Below, piece by piece: positions 26,441 to 57,307 of a DNA stretch of 64,000 nucleotides (the stretch's first letter is position 1; the number at the start of each line of letters is the position of its first letter). Source of the stretch: Acidiferrobacterales bacterium (GTDB lineage: Bacteria > Pseudomonadota > Gammaproteobacteria > Acidiferrobacterales > UBA6901); NCBI GenBank assembly GCA_036393295.1, contig DASWHF010000045.1, forward strand, positions 14,313 through 78,312, read 5' to 3'. The translations under genes were made by a program, and so were the position numbers. The notes below the pieces were generated by a model that was not told the origin of the DNA, searched no databases, and saw only the letters and a program-made list of their open reading frames with translations.

Positions 26441-26496
26441 GTAGGGTGGGGCCCTGCCCCACCATAACCTTTCGGTGGGGCACGGCCCCACCCTAC
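26441..26496. repeat. REP doublet, family II (GTAGGGTGGGGCCCTGCCCCACC ... GGTGGGGCACGGCCCCACCCTAC)
   Basis: Inverted pair with a GTAG head and CTAC tail. Each unit is an 8-bp G-rich stem plus a 3-nt loop. A second copy of the family is at 54736-54809. Confidence 0.85.
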
Positions 26497-50494: not shown

Positions 50495-50628
50495 CCGCCC
50501 GGCAGGTTTTTGCAGAAAATTTAATAATTTAACTCTGGTTTCGCTTGCGGTGCCCGACCCGGATGTACTATTTTTCCTGTATGCAGCGCGCTGAGCCACA
50601 CAACTAAACAGGCCGGGGACCGGGGGTC

Positions 50629-53187
50629 ATGGCCAAAGGGGGGTTCCTCAAACGGGACGCGCTCGTCGCCCTGGTCCTGGCGTTGGTGTTCATCGTGGCG
50701 GTGATCGCCGACCTGCGCCTGCTGAGCAACCTCGAGGCCATCGCCTACGACGCCGGCGTCGGGATGACCGGCCGCAAGCCGGGCGCCTCCGAGCAGATCG
50801 CGCTCATCACCATCGACGACGACAGCATCCGCGAGCTCGGCCGCCTGCCGTGGCCGCGCAACGTGCTCGGCGACATGATCCTCAAGCTCTCCCAGGCGCG
50901 CGCGCGGCTGATCGCGCTGCAGATCCTGCTGAGCGAACCCCAGACCGATCCCGGCCTCGTGCAGCTGCGCGAGATCGAGCAGTTCGTCACCGACAACGCC
51001 GGCCTGCGCCGGCGCGCCCCGCGCGAAGCCGCCGAGCTGCGCAACCGGCTGGCGCGCGCGACGCGCGAGCTCGATGTCGACGCGCAGCTCGCCGCCGCCT
51101 TGCCGCGCGCGCGCAACGTGCTGATGCCGATGTTCTTCCAGGAAGGCCGCCCGCTCGGCCGCGCCGACCAGCCGCTGCCGGATTTCGTCCAGCGCAACCG
51201 CCTGACACGGGTCGTGATCCCACCGAACAGCGGCGCCCGCGCCCCGACCGCGGTCGACGCCACCGTGCCGCTCGAGATCTTCGGTCGCCACATCGCCGGC
51301 GTCGGTCATCTCAACGTCCTGCCCGACAGCGACGGCGCGGTGCGCACCGATGCCCTGGTGATGCAGTACTACGACGAGTACTACCCGTCGCTGGCGCTGA
51401 TGATCGCGGCGCGCTCGCTCAACCTCGACGCCCGGGACATCAGCGTGACGCTCGGCGAGCACGTGACGCTCGGCAAACTCACGCTCGAGACCGACGACCG
51501 TGCGCGTTTGTACTCGGGTTTCTATCCGCGCAGCGAGCGCCGTGAACCGCCGTTCGCGCGGTACTCCTTCCACGAGGTGCTGAGCGGCAAGATCGATGCG
51601 CGCACCTTCCGCGACAAGATCGTCCTGATCGGCGCCACTGCCCAGGGCGTCGGCCATCGTCTGGTGACGCCGGTGGACCGCGCGATGCCGGAGCTCGAGC
51701 TGACCGCCAACAGCGTGGCCAGCATCCTCAACGAGGATTTCTACCGCCGGCCGGAGTGGGCGCTGTGGGCGGAAATGGGCATCTGGCTCACGATCGTCCT
51801 GTATCTCATGTTCATGCTGCCGCGCGTCGCCGCCGGGCCGGGCGGGTTCGTGTCCTTCGTGCTGTTCGCCGGCCTGCTGACCGGCGCGCACTATCTGCTG
51901 GTCACCCAGCAGTTGTGGCTGCAGACCGTGGCGCCGGCGCTGCTGCTGCTCACCGGCCACCTGGTGCTGGTCACCAAGCGCTTCTTCGTCACCGAGCGGC
52001 TCAAAGTGCAGGTCGAAGCCGATTCCGCCCAGACCAACCGCATCCTGGGCCTGAGCTACCAGGGCCAGGGCCAGCTCGACTCGGCGATGGACAAGTTCCG
52101 CTCGCTGCCGGTCGACGATTCGGTGCTCGATCTGATCTACAACCTGGCGCTGGATTTCGAGCGCAAGCGCCAGTTCAACAAGGCCGCGGCCGCCTACGAC
52201 TACATCCTCGAGCACCGCGACAAGTTCCGCGACGCCGCGGAGCGCCGCGAGCGCGCCCGTCAGGCCGAGAACAGCTTAATCATCGGCGGCGGTCGCGCCG
52301 GACCGGGCGGCACGCTGATCCTCGACGGCGCCGACCAGAAGCCGACGCTCGGCCGCTATGAGCTCGACCGCGAGCTCGGCAAGGGCGCGATGGGCGCGGT
52401 CTACCTGGGGCGCGACCCGAAGATCAATCGGGTGGTCGCGATCAAGACCATGGCGCTGTCCGAGGAGTTCGCCGGAAGCGACCTGGCCGACGTCAAGGCG
52501 CGCTTCTTCCGCGAGGCCGAGACCGCCGGCCGCCTCAACCACCCCTATATCGTCACCATCTACGACGCCGGCGAGGAGCACGACCTCGCCTACATCGCCA
52601 TGGAATACCTGGAGGGCAAGGACCTGACCGAATTCATCCGGCCCGACCGGCTGCTGCCGGTGCACGAGGCGGTCGACATCGTCTGCAAGGTCGCCGAGGC
52701 CCTGGACTATGCCCACCAGAACGACGTGGTGCACCGCGACATCAAACCGGCCAATATCATGTATGATCAGGCCAAGCAGTCGGTCAAGGTGACGGACTTC
52801 GGCATCGCCCGCATCACCGCCTCGAGCCGCACCAAGACCGGCGTGATCCTCGGCACGCCGTCCTACATGTCGCCGGAGCAACTCGCCGGCAAGCATCTCG
52901 ACGGGCGCACCGATCTGTTCTCGCTGGGGGTCACCTTGTTCGAGCTGCTCACCGGCGGGCAGCCGTTCAATGGGGATTCGATGGCGACGTTGATGTACCA
53001 GATCGCGAATGAGCGTCACCCGGACGTCACCCGACTCCGCGAGGGTCTCCCATCCTGCTTCAAGACCGTGCTCGACAAAATGCTCAACAAAAATCCCGAT
53101 AAACGCTATCAGAGCGGCATCGAGCTGCGCGACGCGCTGCTCCGCTGCCAGCGCGCCACCGTGCCACGCAAGGCGGGGGCGTCATGA
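50629..53187 (+). CDS. CHASE2 sensor domain / TM / TPR-like linker / Hanks-type Ser/Thr protein kinase
   Basis: N-terminal TM plus a CHASE2-like periplasmic region (IALITIDDDSIRELGRLPWPR), three TM helices at ~aa 385-460, a helical repeat linker, and a kinase domain (GKGAMGAVYLG, AIK, HRDIKPAN, DFGIA, SPE). Confidence 0.85.
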   Translation: MAKGGFLKRDALVALVLALVFIVAVIADLRLLSNLEAIAYDAGVGMTGRKPGASEQIALITIDDDSIRELGRLPWPRNVLGDMILKLSQARARLIALQILLSEPQTDPGLVQLREIEQFVTDNAGLRRRAPREAAELRNRLARATRELDVDAQLAAALPRARNVLMPMFFQEGRPLGRADQPLPDFVQRNRLTRVVIPPNSGARAPTAVDATVPLEIFGRHIAGVGHLNVLPDSDGAVRTDALVMQYYDEYYPSLALMIAARSLNLDARDISVTLGEHVTLGKLTLETDDRARLYSGFYPRSERREPPFARYSFHEVLSGKIDARTFRDKIVLIGATAQGVGHRLVTPVDRAMPELELTANSVASILNEDFYRRPEWALWAEMGIWLTIVLYLMFMLPRVAAGPGGFVSFVLFAGLLTGAHYLLVTQQLWLQTVAPALLLLTGHLVLVTKRFFVTERLKVQVEADSAQTNRILGLSYQGQGQLDSAMDKFRSLPVDDSVLDLIYNLALDFERKRQFNKAAAAYDYILEHRDKFRDAAERRERARQAENSLIIGGGRAGPGGTLILDGADQKPTLGRYELDRELGKGAMGAVYLGRDPKINRVVAIKTMALSEEFAGSDLADVKARFFREAETAGRLNHPYIVTIYDAGEEHDLAYIAMEYLEGKDLTEFIRPDRLLPVHEAVDIVCKVAEALDYAHQNDVVHRDIKPANIMYDQAKQSVKVTDFGIARITASSRTKTGVILGTPSYMSPEQLAGKHLDGRTDLFSLGVTLFELLTGGQPFNGDSMATLMYQIANERHPDVTRLREGLPSCFKTVLDKMLNKNPDKRYQSGIELRDALLRCQRATVPRKAGAS

Positions 53188-53981
53188 GCGGGCTCGCCAT
53201 GAGCGGCCTCACCCATCCCGGGCAGGTGCGCGACCGGAACGAGGACGCCTTCCTGCTCGAGCCCGCCAACGGCATCGCCGTGCTCGCCGACGGCATGGGC
53301 GGCCACCAGGCCGGCGAGGTGGCGAGCGCCATGGCGGTCGATCTCATCACCCGCCACCTGCGCGAGGCGGCGGATGCGCGCGCCCCGGGCAAGCCCCGCC
53401 CCGCGACCGCCCTGGGCGACGCGGCGATCGACGCGATCCGCAGTGCCAACCAGGCGATCTTCGACGCCGCGCGCAGCAAACCCGAATACGCCGGCATGGG
53501 CACGACCGTGGTGGTCGCGTTGTTCGACGCCAACAAACTGTGGGTGGCGCATGTCGGCGACTCGCGGCTGTATCGCTTCCGCGGCGGCCGGCTCAGCCAG
53601 ATCACCGTCGATCACTCCATGGTCCAGGAACTGCTCAACCGCGGGCTGATCAGCGAGGAGGAGGCGCGCACCTCGGCCAACAAGAACCTGGTGACGCGCG
53701 CGCTCGGCGTCGATACGCAGGTCGAGCCGGACGTCCAGGAGCAGACATTTCTCAAGGGCGACGTCTACCTCCTGTGCTCCGACGGGCTCACCGACGTCCT
53801 GCCGGACGCGGACATCGAGCGCATCCTGCAGCAGCATCGCGACGCGCTCGACACCGCAGTCCAGCAACTGGTCGACGAGGCCAACGCGCGCGGCGGCCCG
53901 GACAACGTTTCCGTCGTGCTGGTGCGCACCGACAAGCGCTTCGCGCGCGACAAACAGCCGTCGGCGGACGCCACGGCTTGA
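53184..53981 (+). CDS. PP2C-family Ser/Thr phosphatase
   Basis: ATGA overlap with the kinase gene. Motifs RDRNEDAF, LADGMGGH, GTTVV and CSDGL. Confidence 0.88.
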   Translation: MSGLAMSGLTHPGQVRDRNEDAFLLEPANGIAVLADGMGGHQAGEVASAMAVDLITRHLREAADARAPGKPRPATALGDAAIDAIRSANQAIFDAARSKPEYAGMGTTVVVALFDANKLWVAHVGDSRLYRFRGGRLSQITVDHSMVQELLNRGLISEEEARTSANKNLVTRALGVDTQVEPDVQEQTFLKGDVYLLCSDGLTDVLPDADIERILQQHRDALDTAVQQLVDEANARGGPDNVSVVLVRTDKRFARDKQPSADATA

Positions 53982-54045
53982 CAAACCGGTATCGACTTTA
54001 TTCAATGCCCAATCAAAATGCCGCACGCTTAAGCGAGATGCAACC

Positions 54046-54705
54046 ATGGCGAAAATAACGATCAAATTTGACGACGTGGTGATCGACCAGCTGGTCATCA
54101 AACCGGGGGACATGTCCATCGGCCGGCGCCCCGGCAGCGACATCTTGCTCGACAACCTCGCGGTCAGCGGCAACCACGCCACGATCTTCACGGTCGGCGA
54201 GGATTCCTTCATCCAGGATCTCAACAGCACCAACGGGACCTTCGTCAACAACGTCAAGATCACCAAGCACCATCTCAAGGACGGCGACACCGTCGTGATC
54301 GGCAAGCACGCGCTGGTCTACAACAACGAGAACGCCGCGCGCGCGCCGGCCGACAATCTCGCCAAGACCATGATCATCACGCCGCCGCGCAAGGCCGACG
54401 ACGCAGTGACCGATCCGCGCCCGGCGGCCGGCGCCGAGCCGCGCCGCGGCTCCATTTTCGTGCTGAGCGGCGCGAACAGCGGCAAGCGCATCGAGATCAC
54501 CAAGGCGGTCACCAACCTCGGCCACGGCGGCAAAGTCGCCGGCGTGATCAACCGCAACGCCAGCGGCGGCTACATCCTGGTGCCCGGCGGCCAGGGCGAG
54601 TTGCTCAAGCTCAACGGCAACCCGGTGCCGGGCCGCGGCGAGACGCTCAAGAACGGCGACGTCATCGAGATCGCCGGATCGCGCATGCAGTTCTATCTCA
54701 AATAG
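54046..54705 (+). CDS. FHA-domain protein (canonical N-terminal FHA plus degenerate C-terminal FHA-like domain)
   Basis: N-terminal SIGRRPGSDILLDNLAVSGNHATIF...NSTNGTFVNN...GDTVVIG. The C-terminal 85 aa have FHA-like spacing (NGNPV...LKNGDVIEIAGSRMQF) but lack the SR/H/S..NG phosphopeptide-binding residues. Confidence 0.8.
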   Translation: MAKITIKFDDVVIDQLVIKPGDMSIGRRPGSDILLDNLAVSGNHATIFTVGEDSFIQDLNSTNGTFVNNVKITKHHLKDGDTVVIGKHALVYNNENAARAPADNLAKTMIITPPRKADDAVTDPRPAAGAEPRRGSIFVLSGANSGKRIEITKAVTNLGHGGKVAGVINRNASGGYILVPGGQGELLKLNGNPVPGRGETLKNGDVIEIAGSRMQFYLK

Positions 54706-54735: not shown

Positions 54736-54809
54736 GTAGGGTGGGGCCCTGCCCCACCAGCGGCATGCAGGCCTGGTCGACACAATGGTGGGGCAGGGCC
54801 CCACCCTAC
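54736..54809. repeat. REP doublet, family II
   Basis: GTAGGGTGGGGCCCTGCCCCACC ... GGTGGGGCAGGGCCCCACCCTAC, lying between the convergent FHA gene and radA. Confidence 0.85.
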
Positions 54810-54815
54810 CCTTGT

Positions 54816-56183
<1,368 letters not shown>

Positions 56184-56212
56184 GGCGGGTAATTTATCAG
56201 AAAACCCGACGC

Positions 56213-57307
56213 TTAAGGCGCACCGACCTCGACCCGCGGCACGCGCGCAGTGACGCGGCACAGCAGCTCATAGGATATCGTCCCGGCCGCGGCGGCGATC
56301 TCGTCGACCGGCAGTTCCTCGCCCCACAGCACCACGCGGTCGCCGACGCGCGGGTCGCGGACCCCGCGCAGGTCCACCGTGATCATGTCCATCGACACCC
56401 GGCCGATCAAGCCGGCGCGCCGCCCGTTGACCAGCACCGGCGTGCCGGCCGGCGCATGGCGCGGATAGCCGTCGCCGTAACCGGCGGCCGCCACGCCGAC
56501 CGGCATGTCCTCCGGACAGGCCCAGTCGCCGCCGTAGCCGATCAGCTCACCCTTGCGGCGTTGATTCACCGCGATCAACTCGGTTTCGAGCGTCATGACC
56601 GGCTTCAAGCCCAGCTCGCGCGCCGGCTGGCCGATCAACGGCGCGCCGCCGTAGAGCATGATCCCGGGCCGCACCCAGTCGAAATGGCTGGCCGGCCAGG
56701 CGACGATGCCGGCGGAGTTCGCGAGGCTGCGCTCACCGACGACCTCGCCGCCCAGCTCCGCGGCCAGCTGGAGAAACCGGTCGATCTGCATCGGGGTGGC
56801 CGCGTCGAAGCGGTTATCGGCGTTGGCCAGGTGCGACAGGAGCCGCAGCCTGCCGAGGCCGGGGAGCTTGTTGAGCCGTTGCGCCGCGTCGACGGCCGCT
56901 TCCGGCACGAAACCCAGGCGATGCATGCCGGTGTCGACCTTGAGCCATACGTCCAGACCGGCGAGCCCGGGGGTGTTCTCCATATCCCACAACTGACTCT
57001 TATGATGCACCGCCGGCGACAGCTGTGCCTTGACGATGGCGGGCAGTTCCTCGGCGTCGAAGAAGCCCTCGAGCAGGCAGATCGGCTGCCGCACGCCGGC
57101 GGCACGCAGCGCGGTGCCCTCCTCGACGCTCGCGACCCCGAAGGCGTCGGCCGCGCCCAGAATCCCGGCGGCCCAGGCCAGGCCGTGGCCGTAGGCATCG
57201 GCCTTGACGACCGCCATCACCCGCGCGTCGGGCGCGAAATCGCGCACCCGGGAGAGGTTGTCGCGCAGCGCATCGGCCGACAGCAGGGCACGGATCGGTC
57301 TAGCCAT
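56213..57307 (-). CDS. alr: alanine racemase
   Basis: VVKADAYGHG PLP-lysine motif; full-length ORF. Confidence 0.92.
   Translation of the reverse strand: MARPIRALLSADALRDNLSRVRDFAPDARVMAVVKADAYGHGLAWAAGILGAADAFGVASVEEGTALRAAGVRQPICLLEGFFDAEELPAIVKAQLSPAVHHKSQLWDMENTPGLAGLDVWLKVDTGMHRLGFVPEAAVDAAQRLNKLPGLGRLRLLSHLANADNRFDAATPMQIDRFLQLAAELGGEVVGERSLANSAGIVAWPASHFDWVRPGIMLYGGAPLIGQPARELGLKPVMTLETELIAVNQRRKGELIGYGGDWACPEDMPVGVAAAGYGDGYPRHAPAGTPVLVNGRRAGLIGRVSMDMITVDLRGVRDPRVGDRVVLWGEELPVDEIAAAAGTISYELLCRVTARVPRVEVGAP

Follow-up and report, generated by a model that had tools for sequence, protein, structure and literature searches.

The DNA analysed here is a 64,000-nucleotide (64-kb) stretch of contig DASWHF010000045.1 (assembly GCA_036393295.1, Acidiferrobacterales bacterium), referred to below as the window. 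Three co-directional genes were found in it between dapE and a repetitive extragenic palindromic (REP) doublet, and were shown to code for a receptor Ser/Thr kinase with a CHASE2 sensor, a PP2C phosphatase and a tandem-FHA adaptor (Table 1). These three genes, hereafter the triad, had already been delineated in an earlier reading made without database searches (the sequence-only reading), and the open reading frames (ORFs) match its gene boundaries exactly. The GC content at third codon positions of the three ORFs is 0.92-0.93, a strong coding bias in a sequence of 68% GC, and the overall GC content of the triad is the same as that of its surroundings. The remainder of the window is made up of housekeeping genes.

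The first gene of the triad encodes a protein of 852 residues in which both a CHASE2 and a Hanks-type kinase domain scored well above their Pfam thresholds, in agreement with the sequence-only reading. Three transmembrane (TM) helices had been reported in this protein and these were recovered after the CHASE2 domain; hydropathy analysis added a further, N-terminal helix (TM1, residues ~11-31) ahead of that domain, so that the topology is 1+3 and the CHASE2 domain is therefore placed in the periplasm and the kinase domain in the cytoplasm. A CHASE2 match above the Pfam threshold, together with one N-terminal and three C-terminal TM helices, identifies the product as a CHASE2 sensor protein. The CHASE2 signature DxxS...G.WPWPR is invariant or nearly so (D63, S66, G71, P74, W75 and R77). 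The cytoplasmic helical linker which follows is highly conserved among orthologues; its earlier description as TPR-like is a fair one but does not reach Pfam level, the best match (TPR_2, E=3.6e-4) scoring 20.9 bits against a cutoff of 27.

The kinase domain carries all the hallmarks of a Hanks-type Ser/Thr kinase (Lys, HRD, Asn, DFG and (A/S)PE). Specifically, K606, H702-R703-D704, N709, D723-F724-G725, T735/T737 and S748-P749-E750 are invariant in 24 orthologues. The two activation-loop threonines, T735 (codon 52831-52833) and T737 (codon 52837-52839), are also kept across the triad loci, the former as Thr in 33/33 and the latter in 31/33, and the sequence T737-G-V-I matches the pattern pTxxI as well. 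Upstream of the kinase domain, T562 in the segment G-G-T-L-I-L-D (codon 52312-52314) is likewise invariant in 24 orthologues. Assignment to the PknB/Stk1 PASTA kinases was rejected: model NF033483 gave 311 bits against a cutoff of 450, covered residues 575-846 only, and no Pfam PASTA match was obtained.

The second gene encodes a PP2C phosphatase whose start overlaps the kinase stop codon by ATGA, as had been proposed and as can be read at the junction; the phosphatase is translationally coupled to the kinase via this overlap. With 264.5 bits against a cutoff of 230 for NF033484, over profile positions 2-231 of 232, it belongs to the Stp1/IreP family. The metal-binding motifs NED, DGMGGH, GDSR, SDG and DN are all present in its translation.

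The third gene (54046-54705) encodes a free protein of 219 residues with no transporter domain in Pfam, which we term the adaptor. A model generated with AlphaFold2 from an alignment of 30 orthologues showed two confident beta-sandwich domains, residues 1-99 (FHA1) and 131-219 (FHA2), separated by a disordered linker. In the whole adaptor only FHA1 passes Pfam. Its phosphothreonine (pThr)-contact residues G26, R27, S41, H44, N63, G64 and T65 are invariant in the 30 orthologues, and its best matches in the PDB, by sequence and by structure, were GarA, OdhI, FhaA and the Rv1747 FHA domain (TM-scores of 0.8-0.9, target-normalised; E=2.7e-10 for the sequence match to the Rv1747 FHA domain). Judged by its fold and pocket residues, FHA1 is a canonical phosphothreonine-binding FHA domain.

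Modelled alone, FHA2 reached a mean predicted local distance difference test score (pLDDT) of 89 and a predicted TM-score (pTM) of 0.81, and the top 50 PDB matches of the model were all FHA domains (OdhI/GarA, TM-score ~0.8). Comparison of FHA2 with FHA1 using hhalign gave a probability of 97% (E~1e-10) with a phylum-spanning alignment, and a weak match over 24 columns when only close orthologues were used, an alignment too shallow to be informative. In the phylum-spanning alignment FHA2 keeps the G-[R/K] position only, and the SxxH and NGT motifs are absent. With these motifs lost, and a histidine (H160) at the remaining pocket position in the window protein, FHA2 is therefore probably not a canonical phosphothreonine reader. 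The double FHA architecture of the sequence-only reading thus stands as far as the two folds are concerned; the second pocket is degenerate, and the Pfam FHA match to it is sub-threshold (E=0.15). Other sub-threshold Pfam matches to FHA2 were YscD and S4_2, and an S4/YbcJ label for this domain was rejected as probably spurious.

The linker between the two domains is hypervariable in length and sequence except for the segment A106-K107-T108-x-I110-I111, which is invariant in the 30 orthologues (T108 codon, 54367-54369). Across 31 triad loci from at least four phyla, this threonine is kept in at least 90% of the FHA proteins, within the consensus [FL]-x-[KRE]-T-[MV]-[VI]-[IL] and with a hydrophobic residue (I, L or M) always found at position +3. 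Bacterial FHA domains favour the sequence pThr-x-x-Ile/Leu/Val. As an invariant threonine in a pTxxI-type context within an otherwise variable linker, T108 is the obvious candidate for a phospho-acceptor and FHA ligand. A longer form of the adaptor (439 residues) is encoded in one deltaproteobacterial locus (L024, 13641-14960); it has an extra N-terminal domain of ~230 residues without a Pfam match, both of its FHA domains pass Pfam, and the linker threonine is kept (A-E-K-T-M-Y-V).

Table 1. Features of the triad locus, in coordinates of the window
Feature	Coordinates	Strand	Basis
Intergenic region between dapE and the kinase gene	50495..50628	+	Locally AT-rich; sequence read
CHASE2 receptor Ser/Thr kinase, 852 aa	50629..53187 (including stop codon)	+	ORF; Pfam CHASE2 and Pkinase
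Periplasmic CHASE2 sensor, aa 22-395	50692..51813	+	PF05226, 182 bits (cutoff 26.3)
Three TM helices, aa ~378-449	51760..51975	+	Kyte-Doolittle segments 378-398, 403-426 and 429-449
Cytoplasmic helical TPR-like linker, aa 450-576	51976..52356	+	Sub-threshold TPR matches
Hanks-type kinase domain, aa 577-827	52357..53109	+	PF00069, 197 bits
Stp1/IreP-type PP2C Ser/Thr phosphatase, 265 aa	53184..53981	+	NF033484; Pfam PP2C
FHA1, aa 1-99	54046..54342	+	Pfam FHA, residues 24-86, 75.7 bits
Disordered inter-domain linker, aa 100-130	54343..54435	+	pLDDT <50
FHA2, aa 131-219 and stop	54436..54705	+	FHA fold, degenerate phosphothreonine pocket
REP-like inverted doublet	54736-54759 and 54786-54809 (span 54736..54809)	.	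24-nt arms, 100% complementary, 26 nt apart

The position of the triad was compared among related genomes. An Acidiferrobacterales metagenome-assembled genome (MAG) encodes a protein that matches the window kinase with 100% identity, and 731 kinase homologues were found at E<=1e-20, the best 120 of which are ~840-850 residues long and 55-65% identical. Seven independent clade members on long contigs were sampled, including the most divergent listed match (55% kinase identity). The arrangement triad> <radA<alr<dnaB was seen in all seven, and six of them have the complete order EamA-dapC-dapD-dapE / kinase-PP2C-FHA / radA-alr-dnaB-rplI-rpsR. The exception concerns the dap side of one assembly (L001, from the complete genome CP070641.1, GCA_020354085.1), which has an 81-residue M20 fragment and non-dap genes upstream of the triad; in Logan contigs carrying the protein of L001, dapD and dapE are intact upstream. 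In another of the sampled loci (L004, 14571-17862) the FHA gene and radA are separated by inserted DUF2254 and DUF3185 genes, and radA itself is broken into three ORFs, for which frameshifts or assembly errors are possible. As the same position among housekeeping genes is occupied in the relatives, the triad is a vertically inherited core-genome locus of an Acidiferrobacterales-like gammaproteobacterial clade and not a translocated copy. The module had been called an orphan in the sequence-only reading, a label that is at best partly apt, given the shared dapE/radA position and the recurrence of the gene order in at least 30 loci (see below). Nor was the alternative raised alongside it borne out, namely that orthologues would sit inside a known system elsewhere and that this copy would be a simple translocation, since the orthologues share the dapE/radA position.

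This conserved position also bears on whether the triad might be an anti-phage defence kinase system of the PD-T4-6 or MADS-like type. The PADLOC models for PD-T4-6 and mad6 match the kinase strongly, with up to 320 bits, and partial matches to MAD6 and PglW were obtained with NCBIfam. However, all of these matches are confined to the generic Hanks domain (residues ~570-848), and PADLOC gave nothing on the FHA protein and a weak match on the PP2C. The triad occupies a syntenic housekeeping position in 7/7 relatives, with no variable island, no defence genes beside it and a GC content equal to that of the surroundings. The PD-T4-6/mad6 identity was rejected as generic kinase-domain similarity, and a role in defence is hardly credible.

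To describe the family more widely, 1.84 billion representative sequences were searched; end-to-end alignments with the kinase were obtained for more than 150 clusters (formed at 50% identity), which are 37-59% identical to it, and the adaptor is matched by thousands of proteins. A scan of one genome per species gave ~40 full-length loci, which span Beta-, Gamma-, Zeta- and Deltaproteobacteria, Nitrospirae and Elusimicrobiota MAGs. All triad loci recovered come from MAGs. At least 30 of the loci retain the order kinase-PP2C-FHA, and the adaptor is alignable over its full length. Since this gene order is kept across phyla, the three genes appear to work as a unit. Some triads have a shorter kinase of ~440-490 residues without CHASE2 domain and TM helices (L044, 9776-11206; L045, 9371-10831; L046, 9827-11137; L050, 9986-11299; L058, 9986-11407). 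In two of them, L044 and L046, similarity to the window kinase still includes the helical linker. The periplasmic sensor would therefore be dispensable for the kinase/PP2C/tandem-FHA core.

The proteins encoded around the triads were also surveyed. When 131 neighbour proteins of 24 triads were assigned to Pfam families, those that recurred were GAF, T2SSE/MshEN, PDEase_II, the RadA/Alr/DnaB domains and succinyl-CoA ligase, that is, chiefly cyclic-nucleotide genes and radA/alr. Other lineage-specific neighbours resemble unrelated housekeeping genes, as judged by reading their translations, Pfam having confirmed the recurrent families only. Two Desulfobacteraceae loci (L020, 14170-15132; L023, 7922-8881) encode, directly after the FHA gene, a conserved protein of ~320 residues with an N-terminal zinc ribbon, one TM helix and no Pfam family, which is a possible lineage-specific partner.

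The sequence-only reading had taken post-translational switches of the type VI secretion system (T6SS) as its point of comparison, while remarking that neither T6SS genes nor other obvious targets lay nearby. In Pseudomonas aeruginosa, the H1-T6SS is regulated by a threonine-phosphorylation pathway made of a kinase, a PP2C and an FHA protein, the three protein classes encoded by the triad. We therefore weighed the proposal that the triad is a PpkA/PppA/Fha1-like switch acting on a T6SS cluster located elsewhere in the genome. The TIGR03354 (VI_FHA/TagH) model does match the adaptor, but over FHA1 only and with 37 bits against a cutoff of 120, the C-terminal region of TagH being absent; moreover the sensor of the triad kinase is CHASE2 and not the von Willebrand A domain of PpkA. 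The remark about the neighbourhood proved right for the 64-kb window, in which no T6SS gene was seen, and the same was true of the Pfam-annotated flanks of 10 related loci and of the recurrent families among the 131 neighbour proteins. We thus consider T6SS control and anti-phage defence both to be disfavoured, and the T6SS comparison to be a poor guide to this locus; that the triad regulates a distant T6SS is very unlikely.

We consider it reasonably probable that the locus constitutes a self-contained, reversible Ser/Thr phospho-switch held in the core genome of the Acidiferrobacterales-like clade. From the gene and domain anatomy, the catalytic residues, the FHA folds, the invariance of the threonines, the gene order, the synteny and the lack of T6SS linkage, we infer the following sequence of phosphorylation and binding events and the nature of the output. 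A periplasmic cue would be sensed by the CHASE2 domain of the four-TM receptor kinase. The Hanks domain would thereby be activated and would autophosphorylate T735/T737, perhaps together with T562 of the juxta-kinase segment. FHA1 would dock on a pThr-x-x-(I/L) site of the kinase, either T737-G-V-I or T562-L-I-L, and the kinase would then phosphorylate the adaptor at T108 of the linker (K-T-M-I-I). Phosphorylated T108 would be captured by FHA1, intra- or intermolecularly; this capture may alter binding by FHA1 and the degenerate FHA2, such that the adaptor engages or releases a partner encoded elsewhere. Lastly, the Stp1-type PP2C would strip the phosphates and reset the switch. Such a scheme would work in the manner of GarA/OdhI and of the Rv1747 regulatory module (see below).

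Several observations weigh against this scheme or parts of it. T562 is conserved in the Gamma/Beta clade only, the equivalent position in the wider family being Thr in 16/33 and Ser in 4/33 sequences. T108 lies only ~10-13 residues past the last strand of FHA1, a short distance which may hamper intramolecular binding, so that intermolecular binding is equally possible. Alternatively, the segment T-[MV]-[IV]-[IL] might serve as a linear motif recognised independently of phosphorylation, or form a strand packing against a partner. The residual pocket position of FHA2 varies, the window protein having H160 where most orthologues have Arg or Lys. Finally, the partner genes that accompany the triads of relatives, described next, are absent from the window, and in close relatives none lies less than 10 kb from the triad.

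Nine Beta- and Gammaproteobacterial loci were found to have a gene of the architecture CHASE2-TM-Guanylate_cyc (class III cyclase) adjoining the FHA gene, in either orientation. Several of these cyclase loci add genes for a PDEase_II-type (class-II cAMP) phosphodiesterase, a GAF-MshEN-T2SSE ATPase and a GAF-HD protein. Such cyclic-nucleotide clusters lie at L009 9573-15122, L014 14211-22366, L031 14307-21653 and L006 4312-7423, and their T2SSE ATPase is PilB/GspE-like. The association is reciprocal, since all of the cyclases of this family that were sampled on long contigs (4/4) are convergent with a CHASE2-kinase/PP2C/FHA triad, with outer flanks that differ. The CHASE2 regions of the kinase and of the partnered cyclase are ~25-30% identical. 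The triad-linked cyclase family (L006 5129-7423 and its homologues) comprises 7505 proteins at E<=1e-30, the best 120 of which are ~745 residues long and 61-72% identical; in the triad-linked cyclases a helical tail leads into a conserved C-terminal F-x-T-K. In two deltaproteobacterial loci (L028, 2193-9790, and the equivalent region of L029), a second PP2C with an FHA-GAF-cyclase fusion after it and an MshEN-T2SSE ATPase are encoded beside the kinase. The same two loci also encode a double-PAS membrane protein, and their ATPase has a double zinc ribbon and is divergent from the CHASE2 kinase.

These neighbours raise the possibility that the module controls cyclic-nucleotide signalling. Through the adaptor, the kinase would be linked to a membrane adenylate cyclase whose gene would lie elsewhere in the genome, and Ser/Thr phosphorylation would gate cAMP synthesis and GAF-domain effectors, a proposal which refines the phospho-switch reading by naming its output. 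The nine cyclase loci and the reciprocal pairing speak for it, as do the phosphodiesterase, ATPase and GAF-HD genes added in several of them, the composition of the deltaproteobacterial loci, and the place of GAF, T2SSE/MshEN and PDEase_II among the commonest neighbour families. A rough neighbour-joining tree, moreover, groups the window clade and the cyclase-linked clade as sisters. On the other side, no cyclase, phosphodiesterase or GAF genes lie near the triad in the window or in 7/7 sampled clade members. A tblastn search of the window and close relatives with the cyclase, phosphodiesterase, GAF-T2SSE, GAF-HD and FHA-GAF-cyclase proteins hit nothing but the CHASE2 domain of the kinase itself, and none of the best 120 of the 7505 cyclase homologues lies on contigs of the window clade among the matches listed. 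The partnered cyclases were also inspected for a conserved disordered Thr motif on which an FHA domain might dock, and conserved Thr/Ser were found only in the catalytic fold, besides the F-x-T-K terminus.

The deeper branches of the family (Zeta, Desulfobacteraceae and Elusimicrobiota) are without an adjacent CHASE2 cyclase, and the pairing looks like a later acquisition by a single clade. The triad on its own thus probably represents the ancestral core, to which the CHASE2 cyclase was recruited later in one clade. On balance we regard control of cyclic-nucleotide signalling by the window module as a possible, though not a likely, output. The best lead for an output is nonetheless hinted at by the CHASE2 adenylate cyclase and cAMP-turnover genes of the sister clade. 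The statement in the sequence-only reading that the output cannot be read from the neighbours of this copy was upheld: the flanks are housekeeping genes and the partner genes of relatives are lacking.

The second set of recurrent neighbours lies in the flanks of the window copy itself. Upstream of the triad are yggS, an EamA transporter gene, dapC, dapD and the dapE-type M20 peptidase gene, and downstream, with radA convergent with the triad, are radA, alr, dnaB, rplI, rpsR and rpsF; these identities were derived from the ORFs, from Pfam searches of dapE and radA and from the Pfam-annotated syntenic loci. Outside the window clade, radA and alr were again found near triad genes. The order is <radA triad> <alr<dnaB in L035 (1-3634), L044-46 (L044, 8315-14127) and L049 (8508-15353). 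It is <FHA<PP2C<radA<alr<dnaB in L050 (12264-17639), where the PP2C and FHA genes are co-directional downstream of dnaB-alr-radA, and kinase> <radA in L057 (434-3252) and L060 (4498-7380).

Such linkage would be expected if the module regulated housekeeping functions encoded next to it, either DNA repair and replication (RadA, DnaB) or the supply of peptidoglycan precursors (Alr and DapC/D/E, meso-diaminopimelate), with the adaptor binding RadA, DnaB, Alr or a Dap enzyme. The radA/alr linkage survives at least five local arrangements in separate branches, and proximity that is retained despite rearrangement is a classical mark of functional coupling. A precedent is offered by the mycobacterial cell-wall cluster fhaA-fhaB-pstP-rodA-pbpA-pknA-pknB. 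Another comes from Bacillus, where radA is genetically and physically linked to the diadenylate cyclase DisA (PMC8645862). Yet radA-alr-dnaB-rplI is itself a conserved housekeeping block, and a single ancient insertion followed by local inversions would produce an identical pattern. Outside these lineages, the majority of triads (including the cyclase-linked clade, Zeta, delta and Elusimicrobiota) are without radA, alr or dap neighbours, and a periplasmic CHASE2 domain would be an odd input for a DNA-integrity pathway. In addition, the triad is convergent on radA and therefore shares no promoter with it. We consider regulation of these neighbours to be unlikely.

The two sets of neighbours can be combined in a more speculative proposal. 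The triad would be the ancestral core of a phylum-spanning system in which the kinase writes one pThr on an adaptor that gates a CHASE2 adenylate cyclase, a form of crosstalk between Hanks kinases and cAMP. The Acidiferrobacterales-like clade would either have lost this cyclase or never have gained it, and its adaptor would be wired to a neighbouring housekeeping partner, with RadA as the leading candidate. We put this forward tentatively and think it rather improbable. For the phospho-switch of the window, the candidate partners of the adaptor are ranked as follows: a cyclase or other cyclic-nucleotide component encoded elsewhere, then a neighbouring housekeeping protein (RadA being the neighbour that persists most), and lastly something not yet visible.

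The remaining features of the locus concern its expression signals and boundaries. The AT-rich region between dapE and the kinase gene (Table 1) is presumed to be the promoter region of the triad. Scans of the triad locus for sigma-70 and terminator consensus sequences gave nothing above background, an Rfam scan of the dapE/kinase intergenic region revealed no leader and no riboswitch, and alignment of the upstream regions of four clade members (the window, L001, L004 and L005) showed no conserved motif. The REP doublet lies between the convergent FHA gene and radA. Its unit, GGTGGGGCAGGGCCCCACCCTAC, also forms an inverted doublet at 26441-26496 in an unrelated intergenic region, giving four copies in two intergenic doublets in the window against 0 expected by chance. 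Since the same unit recurs there, the doublet at 54736-54809 is assigned as a REP-like dispersed element, and a short palindrome repeated intergenically in inverted pairs is, within the window, what is expected of REP elements and bacterial interspersed mosaic elements (BIMEs). Rfam returned only sub-threshold miRNA-hairpin artefacts on the doublet, which may act as a transcript-end hairpin. Beyond it, the longest radA ORF (54816-56261) overlaps alr (56213-57307) by 49 nt. As the conserved RadA sequence begins at an internal Met (MAKPKSIYSCNECG), the true start of radA is probably near 56183, in which case radA and alr would abut with no overlap.

The components of the triad were compared with characterised systems. 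To our knowledge, a good understanding of Hanks kinases that work with FHA partners in bacteria is confined to Actinobacteria, Firmicutes and the Pseudomonas T6SS. Like the Stk1/Stp1 (PknB/PstP-type) pairs, the triad has a Hanks kinase encoded together with an Stp1-family PP2C; unlike them, its kinase is without PASTA domains, and the order is kinase, then phosphatase, then a dedicated FHA adaptor. With PpkA/PppA/Fha1 it shares a membrane Hanks kinase, a PP2C and an FHA protein arranged as a reversible switch, and it differs in having no T6SS linkage in the loci examined, in failing the TagH/Fha1 model and in its CHASE2 sensor. The actinobacterial proteins GarA and OdhI are small stand-alone FHA proteins which serve as dedicated Hanks-kinase substrates and whose own pThr binds their own FHA domain, thereby switching the binding of partners; in structure, they are the closest match to FHA1 and FHA2 alike. 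However, each contains a single FHA domain, with its ETTS acceptor at the N-terminus, whereas the adaptor starts with FHA1, has its threonine after FHA1 and continues with FHA2, and nothing points to 2-oxoglutarate-enzyme partners for it. Membership of the adaptor in the GarA/OdhI family was rejected, NF041660 giving 58.6 bits against a cutoff of 200.

The closest resemblance in architecture is to Rv1747/PknF of M. tuberculosis. Rv1747 contains a pair of FHA domains, designated FHA-1 and FHA-2, joined by a disordered linker which holds the PknF targets T152 and T210, and phosphomimetic changes at these two residues compact the regulatory module (PMC8339232). The adaptor likewise consists of an FHA domain, a disordered linker with a threonine and a second FHA domain, with a kinase encoded adjacent to the tandem-FHA module; the match is by architecture only. 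In contrast, the Rv1747 module is fused to an ABC transporter, while the adaptor is free, with a linker of ~30 residues, a single invariant threonine and a degenerate FHA2. The triad kinase, unlike PknF, has a CHASE2 sensor, and a PP2C is encoded in the same operon.

On the sensor side, the kinase resembles the CHASE2 adenylate cyclases (CyaD1, CyaD2 and CyaK of S. meliloti, and cyanobacterial examples) in its order of TM helix, CHASE2 domain and three TM helices, and differs in having a Hanks kinase as output domain. CyaD1, CyaD2 and CyaK respond to an external protein cue via an outer-membrane partner (PMC13001267). The function of CHASE2 has been studied mainly in cyclases, and no direct ligand is reported there (PMC13001267), which bears out the earlier statement that CHASE2 ligands are uncharacterised. 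CHASE2 Ser/Thr kinases have been catalogued in cyanobacteria (PMC2176072), and in surveys only (PMC2176072, PMC2877116). Our literature search for the CHASE2-kinase/PP2C/tandem-FHA unit, for its pairing with CHASE2 cyclases and for any functional study of the family found none. The signalling logic of the triad is thus familiar, while the free tandem-FHA adaptor, the CHASE2 input, the fixation in a core genome and the cyclase pairing in relatives are undescribed.

The triad offers a compact testable unit, with one sensor, one eraser and one adaptor bearing a single invariant threonine, and it is fixed in the core genome of uncultured sulfur- and iron-cycling Gammaproteobacteria. The cyclase pairing in the sister clade provides the first concrete hypothesis for what such CHASE2 kinases control. 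Where two paralogous CHASE2 receptors are encoded in one operon, a favourable system for the discovery of CHASE2 ligands is therefore at hand. If the radA linkage were functional, envelope sensing would be tied to recombinational repair, and wiring of the adaptor to RadA would, if true, amount to a membrane-to-chromosome checkpoint analogous to RadA-DisA in Gram-positive bacteria.

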